64,000 nt of DNA from an uncultured Clostridia bacterium (GTDB lineage: Bacteria; Bacillota; Clostridia; TANB77; CAG-508): positions 9,188 to 73,187 of the forward strand of contig CAKPGM010000005.1 of the NCBI GenBank assembly GCA_934154805.1, given 5' to 3'. Made by a program: the position numbers and the translations under genes. Positions within the stretch are counted from its first letter, which is position 1; the number at the start of each line of letters is the position of its first letter. The notes under the pieces were generated by a model that did not search any database, was not told where the DNA came from, and worked only from the letters and a program-made list of their open reading frames with translations. Below, piece by piece: positions 4,541 through 59,126 of the stretch.

Positions 4541-5749
4541 TTATGATGGTTCCACATTTCCCATATTCACTATTCCTATATATTCTTTATTGTCTTTTAC
4601 TAGTATTATTGTTTGATCCGTGTATCCTAAAGAACCTCTTTTGCTTATCTGTTTGTCATATAATACTATATCGATCATTATCGTTTCAATATATGACGTG
4701 TTATTATTTTCATCTATTCTTATTTCAGATGTCACTTCTACTTTCTCATTATTATACATAATATATGCTTCTTCAAAGTTTGTATATTCATCTGTTATCT
4801 CAAATTTTAACATAATATATACATAACCATGTGAATCCTTTTCTCCTACTATTGTATACAATGGTAAACTCTTATCTATATTGGTTACTTCTACTTCTTT
4901 TGTATATATTTTTCCTGTTAGTATGTCTTGTACCTTGAATGTATATGTACCATTCTCTGTGGCTATATATCTGTTTGAAGTTTCATTGTCTGGGTTTGTT
5001 ATAGTATAACCTTCTATCATTTTAGTAGATTCGTTATAATAAAATTCAATAAGTATTTGACCTGTAATTCCATTTATTCCAAGTTCACTTGTTTCCACTG
5101 CCGTCCAAAAAGCATCTTCGGTCGCCTCATCTATCCATTGTTGGTTCTTTACCCATTCTACCGCCTCTTGAAATGTTGTGCAATTTGCTGATGGGTCTTG
5201 TTTATTCACTACCTTTATATACCCATTTCTAATTATCTCTTTCTTCTGGTTTTCACTTAGCAAATTTATAAAATTGCTAAGTTCTTCTTCATTTTTGATT
5301 GTTGGTATTGTAAGTCCCTCTACAGATTCAACTTTTAATATAACCACTCCTGATTTTTCTGTTGCTGGTGTTTTACTGATATTTATTTTTACATTTCCAT
5401 ATTCTATTTGTTTTAATATACTTCCGTCTCTTCTTTTTATTGTTATTATTTCGTTTTCTCTATCTATCTCGTCTTCGTTTAAAAGTTTTCTTGAAAGTAA
5501 ACTTTGTAATACAGCGTTTGCATTTTCTATGCTTTCCCCTGTTTCTGATTTTATAAAATTATTCTGTTTCCATAGTCCTATTTCATCTTCTACTTGTGAT
5601 GCCCTTGTTTCTAGTCTAGATTCTTTAGATTTTCCTATGATTCCATTATTGTCTAATACTAAACTTATACTCACTCCCACTAGTATTAAAAGTACTACTA
5701 TTGTTACTACCAGTGCTATTAAAGTTATTCCTTTTTTATTTTTTAACAT
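4541..5749 (-). CDS. Prepilin-like N-terminus protein with an unknown 360-aa C-terminal domain (locus 1 cargo)
   Basis: MLKNKKG|ITLIALVVTIVVLLILVGVSISLVLDNNGII matches the class III (prepilin) signal pattern G-[FI]-T-L-I-x, with Ala replacing Glu+5. GGAGG RBS is present. Confidence 0.75.
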   Translation of the reverse strand: MLKNKKGITLIALVVTIVVLLILVGVSISLVLDNNGIIGKSKESRLETRASQVEDEIGLWKQNNFIKSETGESIENANAVLQSLLSRKLLNEDEIDRENEIITIKRRDGSILKQIEYGNVKINISKTPATEKSGVVILKVESVEGLTIPTIKNEEELSNFINLLSENQKKEIIRNGYIKVVNKQDPSANCTTFQEAVEWVKNQQWIDEATEDAFWTAVETSELGINGITGQILIEFYYNESTKMIEGYTITNPDNETSNRYIATENGTYTFKVQDILTGKIYTKEVEVTNIDKSLPLYTIVGEKDSHGYVYIMLKFEITDEYTNFEEAYIMYNNEKVEVTSEIRIDENNNTSYIETIMIDIVLYDKQISKRGSLGYTDQTIILVKDNKEYIGIVNMGNVEPS

Positions 5750-5778
5750 AATTTTTCCTCCGTTTTATATATATTTTT

Positions 5779-5951
5779 ATTAAATATGTTATTTAATAAA
5801 AATATTTAATCTTTCAAGCAATCTTAATTCTAAGTTTAGATCATTTTCGGTATTTTTTATGTTTACAATTATTTGTTTTAATCTATTGACTTTTTTCCTA
5901 CAGTTGTGCTATATATAAAATAGTTAGTTTTAATTAAATAACATATTTAAT
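5779..5951 (+). promoter_or_regulatory. Invertible promoter cassette 1, with the promoter facing away from the 4541..5749 gene (OFF)
   Basis: Perfect 19-bp inverted pair ATTAAATATGTTATTTAAT (5779-5797) / ATTAAATAACATATTTAAT (5933-5951). Internal promoter TTGACT (5886-5891), N18, TGcTATATA (5907-5915) lies on the + strand. Confidence 0.7.
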
Positions 5952-6013
5952 TAAAAAATTATTTCTTCATATGTATACTAAGCCAAAATTTTATATTTTG
6001 GTTTCTTTTTTAT

Positions 6014-6042
6014 TTGACAAAAGTCGACATTCATTGTACAAT
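6014..6042 (+). promoter_or_regulatory. Sigma-A type promoter of the 6074..6925 gene
   Basis: TTGACA (6014-6019), N17, TACAAT (6037-6042). Confidence 0.6.
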
Positions 6043-56896: not shown

Positions 56897-56899
56897 TTG

Positions 56900-58012
56900 T
56901 TATACTCCTAATCTATATGCTGTACTTTCGCTGTTTCCATCTCCACTTACAACTTTTAGATTGCCTTTTAAGGTAAATACTGGACGAAGTGCGTTGATTG
57001 CAATATTACTGTCACTTCTGGTACAGTTGCTACTATTATGATCCAAAGCATTAATCAAAAGCGCCGTTCGAGCTATTAACCAGTTAAATTCACTTGCACC
57101 ATCAGTTCTTAAATAAAATGCCATTCCCTTCGTTCCTTCATATACGGGTCCTACTTCATTATATCTTGATGCAAACCAATAATGTTTAGTAGTAGTTAAA
57201 AGGTTTAAATCTTGTAATGTATTGTAATCTTGTACAAAATTGTCATCCTCATCTTTTAATCCTGTATTTGCTTGTACTACTTTATTACTAGATGTCTCTA
57301 ATTCAGTAACTACATCTTCTGGAAGTTCGGCAATTGATTTTGTTTCTCTGTCTTTATTTATCGGATTACTCCCAACACACCTTGCATCTACTGCATATTG
57401 ATCATTAAAGTACTCCATAGCTTTATTATTTAATACCTCTATAGCGTCATTATATAACTCTGTACTTTTATATCGATATTTATCATATTCACTAAAATCA
57501 TAATTTGTAAATATTTCATGTTTATATCTATCATCTTGAAACCATTTTAGTTGATCTATATCCGCAAATGGTATATACACATATTCTCCATCATCTTTTT
57601 TTATACAGTCATCTGTTATTATTTGTAGATTATATGGTGATTCTGCATCATATAATACTCTACAAGTAACTTCTCCTACTCCTTCTATTCCTGTATCATA
57701 TATAATATAATCTCCTGGTTTTAATGCTTTTAGCTCTTCATTATATTCTATTTTTCCTACTGCCGTTTCTATCCAATCAGATAATCCACTTAATTCTTTT
57801 TGTTCGTTTTCGCTTGCTTGTCCGTATTCTCTCCTAGCATCCTTTGATTTCTGTATTACTCCATTGTTATCCAATATTAGACTTATGCTTACTCCCGCCA
57901 ATATTAGAAGTACAACTATTGTAACAACTAATGCTATTAGTGTTATTCCGTTTCTATTATCTGTAAGTATAAACTTTTTTTCTCTTGTACCTTTCTCTTT
58001 ATTATTTCTCAT
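56900..58012 (-). CDS. Prepilin-like N-terminus surface protein, paralog B (intact)
   Basis: NRNG|ITLIALVVTIVVLLILAGVSISLILDNNGVI. Ends INALRPVFTLKGNLKVVSGDGNSESTAYRLGV. Its 5' 360 nt and 3' 94 nt are near-identical to the upstream paralog. Confidence 0.8.
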   Translation of the reverse strand: MRNNKEKGTREKKFILTDNRNGITLIALVVTIVVLLILAGVSISLILDNNGVIQKSKDARREYGQASENEQKELSGLSDWIETAVGKIEYNEELKALKPGDYIIYDTGIEGVGEVTCRVLYDAESPYNLQIITDDCIKKDDGEYVYIPFADIDQLKWFQDDRYKHEIFTNYDFSEYDKYRYKSTELYNDAIEVLNNKAMEYFNDQYAVDARCVGSNPINKDRETKSIAELPEDVVTELETSSNKVVQANTGLKDEDDNFVQDYNTLQDLNLLTTTKHYWFASRYNEVGPVYEGTKGMAFYLRTDGASEFNWLIARTALLINALDHNSSNCTRSDSNIAINALRPVFTLKGNLKVVSGDGNSESTAYRLGV

Positions 58013-58042
58013 AACTTTTTCTTATCTCCTTTTATATTACTA

Positions 58043-59126
58043 CTATATTCCTAATCTATATGCTGTACTTTCGCTGTTTCCATCTCCACTTACAATTTTT
58101 AGATTGCCTTTTAATGTAAATACTGGACGAAGTGCGTTGATTACTAAATATCCGAAAATAGTGTGTTGATACCACAGCTCCATTTTTATTACTAATATTG
58201 TACATTGTTTTGTCATAATCGTGGTAATTATAAGCATAACTTCCATCACTTCTCAAGAAAAATTGCAATTCATTAATATTTGCATAGAACGGACCTACTT
58301 CATTATATCTTGAAGCAAGCCAATAGTGTATATTAGTTGTTAAAAGATTTAAATTCTGTAATGTATTATAATCCATTTCATAATTATCATCTTCATTCTT
58401 TAATTTAGAATCATCTCCTGGCCTACGGTCAATTACATCTGTAGGAATTATGGCTGTTTCTTTGTTTTCTCTTGACTTATCTTCTGGTGAACTACCTACG
58501 CATCTTGCATCTGTAATATATTTATTATTATAAAATTTCATAGCTTCATTATTTAAAATGTTAATGGCATTATTGTATTCTTCATAAATTTTTTCTTCGC
58601 TATTATATTGATACCATTCACTAAAATCATAGTCTTTAAATTTTTCATCAAATTCTGTGTTAGTTCCTGGATTAGAACTATAATTTTTCAAAGATTCTGT
58701 TTTTCCAAATGGTATATACACATATTTACCATCTTTTTTTATACAGTCATCTGTTATTATTTGTAGATTATATGGTGATTCTGCATCATATAATACTCTA
58801 CAAGTAACTTCTCCTACTCCTTCTATTCCTGTATCATATATAATATAATCTCCTGGTTTTAATGCTTTTAGCTCTTCATTATATTCTATTTTTCCTACTG
58901 CCGTTTCTATCCAATCAGATAATCCACTTAATTCTTTTTGTTCGTTTTCGCTTGCTTGTCCGTATTCTCTCCTAGCATCCTTTGATTTCTGTATTACTCC
59001 ATTGTTATCCAATATTAGACTTATGCTTACTCCCGCCAATATTAGAAGTACAACTATTGTAACAACTAGCGCTATTAGTGTGATTCCGTTTCTGTTCTTC
59101 ATATTTTTTAATTTGTTATTTTTCAT
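58043..59126 (-). pseudogene. Prepilin-like N-terminus surface protein, paralog A (locus 4 cargo), with a frameshifted 3' end
   Basis: Frame A (58056..59126) loses the conserved C-terminus. Frame B (58043..58249) encodes ...GYLVINALRPVFTLKGNLKIVSGDGNSESTAYRLGI. Dropping one T from the T4 run (plus-strand A4 at 58155-58158) restores ...STHYFGYLVINALRPVF. Confidence 0.7.

Follow-up and report, generated by a model that had tools for sequence, protein, structure and literature searches.

Candidate modular type IV pilins with Ala at position 5, encoded mostly behind invertible DNA segments in uncultured gut Clostridia

What is served by a single, strictly conserved N-terminus that is shared by proteins with quite different C-terminal domains? 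The question is raised by a stretch of 64,000 nucleotides (nt) from an uncultured Clostridia bacterium (GenBank assembly GCA_934154805.1, contig CAKPGM010000005.1, positions 9,188 to 73,187), referred to here as the window. It consists of low-GC (25-32%) chromosomal DNA with murC, thrS, rpsB, tsf and rnhB, and carries five genes, p1 to p5, all on the minus strand. Their products begin with a basic leader with a terminal Gly, followed by ITLIALVVTIVVLLIL(A/V)GV…L(L/S)DNNG(I/V)I.K(S/A)K; this N-terminal part is called the module. The answer developed below is that the products of the five genes are probably modular type IV pilins, belonging to a pilus system specific to a lineage of uncultured low-GC gut Clostridia, and that the genes are mostly placed behind invertible segments. 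The genes, with product lengths in amino acids (aa), are:

p1: 4541..5749, minus strand; 402 aa; leader MLKNKKG; module at about 5594-5749; C-terminal domain without assignment.
p2: 14933..16234, minus strand; 433 aa; GTG start and 3-aa leader; FGE/C-type-lectin-like domain at about residues 100-410.
p3: 48110..50017, minus strand; 635 aa; 18-aa leader; BspA-type leucine-rich repeats (LRR).
p4: 56900..58012, minus strand; 370 aa; leader of 22 aa; residues 90-370 or so form a globular domain that has INALRPVFTLKG as its end.
p5: 58056..59126, minus strand; 356 aa; 14-aa leader; paralogue of p4.

The five proteins and their common N-terminus had been described in an earlier note, and both are real: all five minus-strand open reading frames (ORFs) are present, and a 17-residue block, GITLIALVVTIVVLLIL, is identical in every one of them (5/5). 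The 47-nt string quoted there for the conserved DNA is located on the plus strand of the p3 module. The last gene has to be redrawn, as 58043..59126, given as a single gene, spans 1084 nt that do not form one ORF. Following the putative cleavage site is a hydrophobic stretch of about 21 residues, ITLIALVVTIVVLLILAGVSISLIL. Between paralogues, the 17 invariant codons differ at 3-11 synonymous positions; the exception is the p4/p5 pair, which has 300 nt in identical form. Such synonymous divergence inside an invariant block means that selection acts on the protein, and that the block is not the mere outcome of recent copying; as judged from these codons, recent copying accounts for the likeness of p4 and p5 only.

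The leaders of p1, p3, p4 and p5 are hydrophilic and end in Gly, with lengths of 7, 18, 22 and 14 residues, respectively, within the 6-26 aa by which class III signals are defined (PMC4471445). In p2, GTG is the only available start, leaving 3 residues before the Gly. Upstream of it (window 16235-16320) there is a short in-frame ORF, MAKEIIKSLKETKERGKR, that is cut off by three in-frame stops; in relatives (P0001, P0003) the leader is uninterrupted and about 28 residues long, MPKETLKKLKETKEGRKINMLKNRKG↓ITL… (the arrow marks the cleavage site). p2 may be a decaying copy. In p5, a 1-nt frameshift at about residue 331, some 26 codons before the ancestral end, has put the INALRPVFTLKG ending out of frame, where it runs to 58043, and 26 unrelated residues take its place. 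Gene calls in three syntenic assemblies with 98% identical flanks (L080-L082) give this 356-aa product as well, so that the frameshift is not an assembly error. A sister assembly, L083, has one intact 364-aa gene in place of the p5/p4 pair.

The module is by no means confined to the window. A profile search of public data, limited to 8,000 candidates, returned more than 7,121 protein clusters, and at least 528 genomic module sites were located in metagenome-assembled genomes of uncultured gut Clostridia with 22-33% GC. Seventy-nine loci from 48 assemblies were kept for analysis, and 131 module copies were scored for individual residues; there are several copies per assembly, up to 12 within the loci examined. 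Residue -1 is Gly in 120 of the 131 copies and Ala in 8. The residue at +5 is Ala 125 times, Ser 3 times, and Cys, Leu or Val once each; no copy has Glu. According to Berry and Pelicic, Gly-1 is critical for processing, and Glu5, while 'almost invariable' in bacteria, is dispensable for processing (PMC4471445). The module thus has the makings of a prepilin-type signal joined to the α1 helix of a pilus system that works without Glu5. A literature search with the motif strings returned no paper.

The connection to pili comes from gene order in relatives. In 15 of the 48 assemblies, and in further contigs beyond these, a module pilin is encoded inside a one-strand operon with the order pilMN-pilO-orf-PILIN(x1-3)-pilD-like-minor-minor-pilB-pilT-pilC. 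At locus L042, PilB matches T2SSE (335 bits) and MshEN, PilT matches T2SSE (149 bits), PilC matches T2SSF, and the PilD-like protein matches A24_N_bact (106 bits); PilM/N/O-like proteins are encoded in the relatives' operons as well. The module pilin at this position takes one of two forms. The first is a precursor of 70-73 aa (about 65 aa when mature) that is essentially helix only; the second comprises one to three genes of 145-171 aa, an ordinary size for a pilin. The operon's two other pilin-like genes have K/R-G↓ signals too, and in one of them (L042:11125-11538 and homologues) residue +5 is Asp without exception (as in G↓VTGVD or G↓FTLQD). This arrangement, with the acidic residue on a minor protein and Ala on the module pilin, is the inverse of the usual pattern, in which the acidic residue is on the major pilin. 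The operon features referred to are:

Short operon pilin genes: L042:10001-10219; L100:5708-5920; L106:1196-1408.
PilD-like gene: L042:10306-11118 and 14 other loci (P0121-P0240); strong A24_N_bact domain, four Cys.

The suggestion that the five proteins carry a signal of the prepilin type in which Ala substitutes for Glu5 is strengthened by the finding that the same module heads pilin genes in the type IV pilus operons of 15 related genomes. On these sequence grounds, the prepilin reading is supported at the level of the lineage. For the stalk, earlier described as a 'pseudopilin', 'pilin' is the fitter word, given that a retraction ATPase of the PilT type is encoded in the operon.

The second part of the answer concerns the DNA in front of the genes. 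Inverted-repeat pairs of 28-38 nt, 84-93% complementary and of the form TTTTAATTAAAT(A/T)ATAT…, lie upstream of p1, p2, p3 and p5. The repeats of a pair are 125 nt apart at p1, p2 and p3 and 106 nt apart at p5, and the whole segment measures about 190 bp; p4 lacks a separate switch and follows p5 at a distance of 43 nt.

Repeat sequence of the switch family: TTTTAATTAAATWATATATTTAATWAAAA
Inverton of p1: 5771..5959; repeats 5771-5802 and 5928-5959, 125 nt between them; core faces away from p1 (OFF).
Inverton of p2: 16381..16569; repeats 16381-16412 and 16538-16569; OFF.
Inverton of p3: 50044..50228; repeats 50044-50071 and 50197-50224; OFF in the window, ON in L098.
Inverton of p5: 59194..59388; repeats 59201-59238 and 59345-59382; ON in the window, core faces p5.

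The four enclosed segments are homologous to one another, with that of p5 oriented opposite to those of p1, p2 and p3. A conserved element, TTGAYT-17/18-TGcTATAAA, flips with the segment, pointing toward p5 and away from the other three genes, and we infer that a promoter is located inside the switch segment. Phase-variable control had been proposed on the strength of the window alone, and comparison with other assemblies confirms inversion for two of the segments. At the p5 locus, the block is inverted in three independent gut metagenome contigs (L080, L081 and L082) and in L083, with the same gene order; the flanks align on one strand (98% identity in L080-L082, 94-95% in L083), and a block of 196 nt matches in the reverse orientation with 95-96% identity. 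The p3 switch is OFF in the window and in L091, L092, L094 and L097, which are of the same species, and ON in L098, where the flank is 99.25% identical and the core TTACAGCTATGCTATAAG stands immediately before the proximal repeat and the ATG. With both orientations present at the orthologous p5 and p3 loci, in assemblies whose flanks are 98-99% identical, inversion is shown directly. Inverted repeats are also enriched upstream of module genes in general, being found at 16 of 111 as against 8 of 187 control genes.

No site-specific recombinase was found among the approximately 40 window ORFs scanned, and the enzyme may be encoded elsewhere in the genome. A 303-aa ORF beside a switch (6014-6925) was considered as a candidate and rejected; it encodes an acyltransferase of the 2-oxoacid-dehydrogenase type. 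Metagenome contigs (L086-L089, L097-L099) often end within a module or a switch, probably reflecting assembly breaks induced by repeats or by inversion. A shufflon, or another form of intragenic inversion, was suggested by module-only database 'proteins' of about 55-100 aa; these are accounted for by contig-end cuts and one TGG-to-TAG nonsense allele.

Module genes are also exchanged as cassettes. In L096 (2984-4256), a p2-type gene, the product of which is 63% identical to p2, lies between rpsB and the gene for pyrimidine-nucleoside phosphorylase (pdp) and replaces the LRR gene p3; on its two sides, identity to the window is 98.4% and 96.6% (region compared, 48064-50422). In L095 (543-4278), p2-type and LRR genes are both present between flanks of 96.6-98.4% identity, and the p3 orthologue has a long leader in the style of p2 and a frameshift inside the module. 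The replacement in L096 and the chimeric leader in L095 indicate that paralogues recombine at or near the module; module cassettes are exchanged between loci. The C-terminal domains are interchangeable, as had been supposed, in the concrete sense that one strain has a p2-type gene at the p3 locus.

The grafted domains are diverse. Among the module proteins of the loci examined, 27 are p2-type, 22 fall to LRR together with p1, 21 are p4-type, and there are 22 small clusters besides. The orthologue of p1 in L001 has 74% protein and 91% nucleotide identity. For p3, the BspA-type LRR assignment that had been made by eye is backed by Pfam LRR_5 (496 bits, E-value 3e-151); its coding DNA contains 69-nt tandem repeats, and its orthologues in L092 and L095 are 98.7-98.9% identical. 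Representative homologues of the p2 domain number 18,388. For p2 itself, Pfam gives no match and there is only a weak motif match to SUMF2 (E-value 0.44); 5 of 40 homologues match FGE-sulfatase, PF03781 (best E-value 1.3e-5). An AlphaFold2 (AF2) model of p2, with a predicted local distance difference test score (pLDDT) of 86.7, gives a Foldseek match to FGE (5nyy, E-value 3e-5, probability 1.0). It heads 30 PDB matches at E≤1e-3, which also include TvpA and TaqVP, variable proteins of diversity-generating retroelements, and PorK. By the model, the C-terminal domain of p2 has the FGE fold, a scaffold shared with TvpA and TaqVP, and the assignment as FGE-sulfatase-like was correct at the level of the fold. 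Domains of this p2 type also occur in giant metagenome proteins of 3,400-6,500 aa (P0242, P0250, P0254), with 14-15 matched stretches in each. The p4/p5 domain forms a family of 85 database clusters; it has no Pfam match and no sequence match in the PDB, and Foldseek of the confident model against the PDB and BFVD came back empty.

Modelling of the N-terminal helix, which had been recommended as a check, gives helices in both proteins modelled. In p4 (pLDDT 81; domain >90), AF2 predicts a helix at residues 23-47, the DNNG break, a second helix at 52-84, and then the globular domain; in p2, helices are predicted at 4-29 and 34-68. The pLDDT of these helices is only 56-89. The architecture common to the two models consists of two helices, of about 25 and about 33 aa, with the DNNG break between them, and of the globular domain, which a flexible linker joins to the second helix. 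The extra modules on this helix-only carrier include LRR_5 (p3) and the FGE-like fold (p2).

This picture is complicated by a number of observations that weigh against the assignment as modular pilins. None of the curated models recognises the family; p1 to p5 score 10.7-19.2 bits with Pfam N_methyl, PF07963 (p1, 17.8), all under the cut-off of 21.2, and with the NCBIfam pilin models scores stay at 20 bits or less and none passes. Glu at +5, part of the class III definition, is absent from the module family (0/131 copies), and this residue is normally required for homopolymer assembly, as mutants lacking it in the bacterial systems studied do not homopolymerise (PMC4471445). The models of p4 and p2 have no β-sheet pilin head between helix and grafted domain. 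Two of the five copies appear damaged, p2 in its leader and p5 by its frameshift.

The processing enzyme also departs from the norm. All eight PilD-like proteins tested match A24_N_bact (97-107 bits), yet none has a match to Peptidase_A24 (PF01478), even at E≤10, or a GxGD motif; the 120 closest database homologues likewise have PF06750 and lack PF01478. With domain and motif both missing, activity is uncertain. The first Asp (in GID) is invariant, and in 14 of 15 proteins a Glu or Asp aligns with the second Asp of what we take to be the Pseudomonas aeruginosa PilD sequence, which is a lead only. A claim that the protein is a dead enzyme was withdrawn in view of this alignment with the second catalytic Asp; the diverged protein may instead represent an active-site variant new to the GxGD proteases.

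The machinery, too, stands at one remove. PilB, PilC and PilD homologues were not found in the window, just as the earlier note had stated that no peptidase, assembly ATPase or platform gene is present there, and it is from relatives that we infer a pilus operon in the window's own organism. One assembly, CAKOSX, contains both a locus syntenic with window 46-64 kb (L040; rpsB 90.5% nucleotide identity) and the pilus operon (L042). Homologues of the PilD-like protein that were traced through sample identifiers (P0133, P0148, P0128, P0126) lie in the operon each time, but none of the samples is one from which this species is known. In relatives, the operon is about 4 kb from a tRNA-Leu (taa) that the window also has; a divergent pilus cluster was looked for beside the window's copy and rejected, the ORFs there being without similarity.

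For the switches, a scan for consensus promoters does not call the switch-borne element, the -10 hexamer of which ends in A. Moreover, at p2 and p5 a fixed promoter-like sequence, TTGAWT-17-TATAAT (TTGATT at p2, TTGAAT at p5), lies between switch and gene:

Fixed promoter-like site of p2: window 16330-16360.
Fixed promoter-like site of p5: window 59160-59188; called by the scan.

The spacer in these fixed sites, ATAAAACATATTGTTTTAT, is perfectly palindromic; it might act as an operator and so add a second layer of control. At p1 and p3, there is no other promoter-like site before the ribosome-binding site.

In principle, the same sequences could serve purposes other than a pilus. The most serious alternative, although an unlikely one, is that the prepilin signal provides for processing and for anchoring in membrane or wall only, the products being single surface proteins or short stubs comparable to the 'bindosome' of Sulfolobus, in which sugar-binding proteins have class III signals. 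Ala at +5 would agree with this, given that Glu5 mutants fail to homopolymerise and that non-pilus class III proteins are known (PMC4471445), as would the bulky domains that follow the helix directly with no pilin head, and the scattering of module genes away from any pilus operon. However, the pilins in the relatives' own operons bear the same Ala5 module, which argues that Ala5 is the normal assembly interface of this system, and the near-invariance of 17 hydrophobic residues over thousands of proteins, in spite of synonymous change, fits a shared packing interface, whereas a mere anchor could do without it.

Still less probable is an ordinary uncleaved signal anchor, that is, a type II membrane protein with a superficial resemblance to prepilins. 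It would explain why N_methyl and all curated pilin models stay below threshold, why Glu5 is absent and why the window holds no machinery, and it would sit well with PilD-like proteins that have no canonical catalytic motif. It leaves unexplained why a module gene stands between pilO/orf and pilD-like in 15 pilus operons and why Gly-1 is kept in 120 of 131 copies when leaders range from 3 to 22 residues; so strong a constraint on sequence is also atypical of anchors. Finally, the idea that the similarity is a by-product of recent duplication or gene conversion, with no common function of the module, is barely tenable: the 300 identical nt of p4/p5 and the chimeric leader in L095, which implies recombination at the module, speak for it, but the differences between other pairs in the invariant block, at 4-11 of 51 nt, are all synonymous, and the module is kept in all of the 48 assemblies and in protein clusters that number more than 7,000.

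If the five proteins are indeed modular pilins, their mode of action might be as follows. A prepilin peptidase would cut after the conserved Gly, and the common helix would dock into the core of a filament that is built by PilB and PilC and consists mainly of the operon pilin. The grafted domain, whether LRR, FGE/C-type-lectin-like or other, would be presented on the fibre, at its tip or over its length, and serve there in adhesion or in the binding of ligands. A site-specific recombinase from elsewhere would flip the promoter-like segment of about 190 bp and so select which genes are expressed; in this assembly, the p5-p4 string would be ON and p1, p2 and p3 OFF. A population would thereby display differing pilus-borne binding domains, and the cell probably varies what its pili stick to. 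A bolder proposal, offered tentatively, is that pili throughout this clade have a Glu5-free interface, a major pilin that is reduced to a helix of about 65 residues, and a peptidase homologue with a non-canonical active site. The helix would be a universal adaptor for a dozen or more modular pilins per genome, each with a different binding domain, many of them behind an invertible promoter of their own, and exchangeable between loci through recombination at the module. If true, this would amount to a combinatorial, phase-variable display of adhesins on pili that goes undetected by current pilin models.

The gene string that begins with p5 and p4 continues with further genes:

Two polytopic membrane proteins (532 and 601 aa): 53467..56896, minus strand; directly downstream of p4.
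p6: 52803..53339, minus strand; 178 aa; G↓MGIIQLI, Gln at +5; downstream in the p5-p4 gene string.

The gene for the 532-aa protein starts 3 nt past the p4 stop. This first polytopic protein scores 20.7 bits with the PMT_2/GT-C glycosyltransferases, under the cut-off of 26.1; the pair is syntenic in L080-L083, and a homologue of the 601-aa protein is found beside module genes in L005. The pair might glycosylate the pilin-like proteins. p6, which had been taken for a looser version of the module, is a different, single-copy protein outside the module family; its resemblance to pilins is weak, it has one homologue among the loci examined, and it is syntenic in L080-L083.

Elsewhere in the window, positions 27553-42058 encompass the tRNA-Leu (taa), an ORF6N-domain protein, a zinc peptidase, two ABC-type ATPases, a TraG/TraD-like coupling protein and a Replic_Relax protein, and may represent an integrated mobile element. 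The assembly closest to the window is GCA_963621875.1 (CAVFFR01; L001, L005, L006, L029, L083), with 91-95% nucleotide identity. It is titled 'Bacteroidaceae bacterium', a label that appears to be wrong, since the other relatives are all labelled Clostridia and the DNA has about 28% GC.

Type IV pili are usually described as having one major and a few minor subunits, and Glu5 as near-obligatory for assembly in bacteria. In a whole lineage of human-gut Clostridia, the Ala5 version of the helix is found on the operon pilin and on large families of domain-bearing proteins. Standard models miss all of these, with the effect that the genomes seem 'pilin-free' and their proteins go under the label hypothetical. 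If they are assembled, the Ala5 proteins put the purpose of Glu5 to the test and show how far the grafting of domains onto pilins can reach. The switches, backed by natural polymorphism in orientation, provide an example of phase-variable adhesion outside Bacteroides and Clostridioides difficile. The carriers are abundant uncultured commensals of the Hadza and other cohorts, which gives the system relevance to colonisation and immune evasion.

Modular type IV pilins as such are established; in Streptococcus sanguinis, the module grafted onto PilB is a vWA domain and that on PilC a lectin (Raynaud et al. 2021, PMC8179133). In both cases a pilin-type signal and helix carry one of a variety of adhesin- or lectin-like domains in a monoderm bacterium, for display on a type IV pilus there and putatively so here. 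Unlike in S. sanguinis, where the solved PilB has a pilin head, the carrier here is the α1 helix only; Ala occupies +5, and the IPR012902/N_methyl signature that was used to catalogue modular pilins remains below threshold. There are also at least 12 paralogues per genome, which are scattered, many with a DNA switch of their own.

Inversion that selects pilin variants with a constant N-terminus and differing C-terminal specificity is known from the PilV shufflon of the R64 thin pilus and from Moraxella Piv. There, a single N-terminal exon is joined by inversion to alternative segments that encode the C-terminus, whereas here whole genes are controlled and an upstream promoter-like segment flips; a shufflon-type arrangement was looked for in the module family and none was found. 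Invertible promoters are likewise familiar, from fimS of Escherichia coli, the capsule loci of Bacteroides, and cwpV and the flagellar switches of C. difficile, and surveys of gut invertons exist (PMC11892184). The present switches resemble them in having short inverted repeats around a segment of about 190 bp before genes for surface structures, with both orientations in natural populations; they differ in that one repeat family serves several pilin-type genes, no recombinase is adjacent and the promoter is a putative one.

Helix-only and Glu5-free pilins have precedents as well. The relatives' 70-73-aa precursor, being essentially α1 only, is similar in size to Geobacter PilA-N (about 61 aa), and archaeal pilins are often without Glu5 (PMC4471445). 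Unlike in these cases, the machinery is of the bacterial PilB/PilT/PilC/PilM-N-O type, and no sequence relationship to archaeal or Geobacter pilins emerged; the best match of the p1 N-terminus in the PDB is the Geobacter 'geopilin', at a non-significant E-value of 0.34.

In gene content there is a parallel with the pil operons of C. difficile and C. perfringens, which have the same monoderm gene set and order (pilB, pilT, pilC, pilM/N/O, with pilD beside the pilins). In those species, the pilins have the canonical G↓FTLxE and PilD has a recognisable Peptidase_A24 domain, whereas the relatives examined here have Ala5 pilins and a PilD-like protein in which Peptidase_A24 is undetectable. Modular pilins, invertons and the control of pilin variants by inversion are thus all known already. 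What appear to be undescribed are Ala5 throughout together with a helix-only carrier; a large, scattered family in which many genes or gene strings have their own switch; the invisibility of the family to curated pilin models; and a diverged peptidase homologue in the operon.

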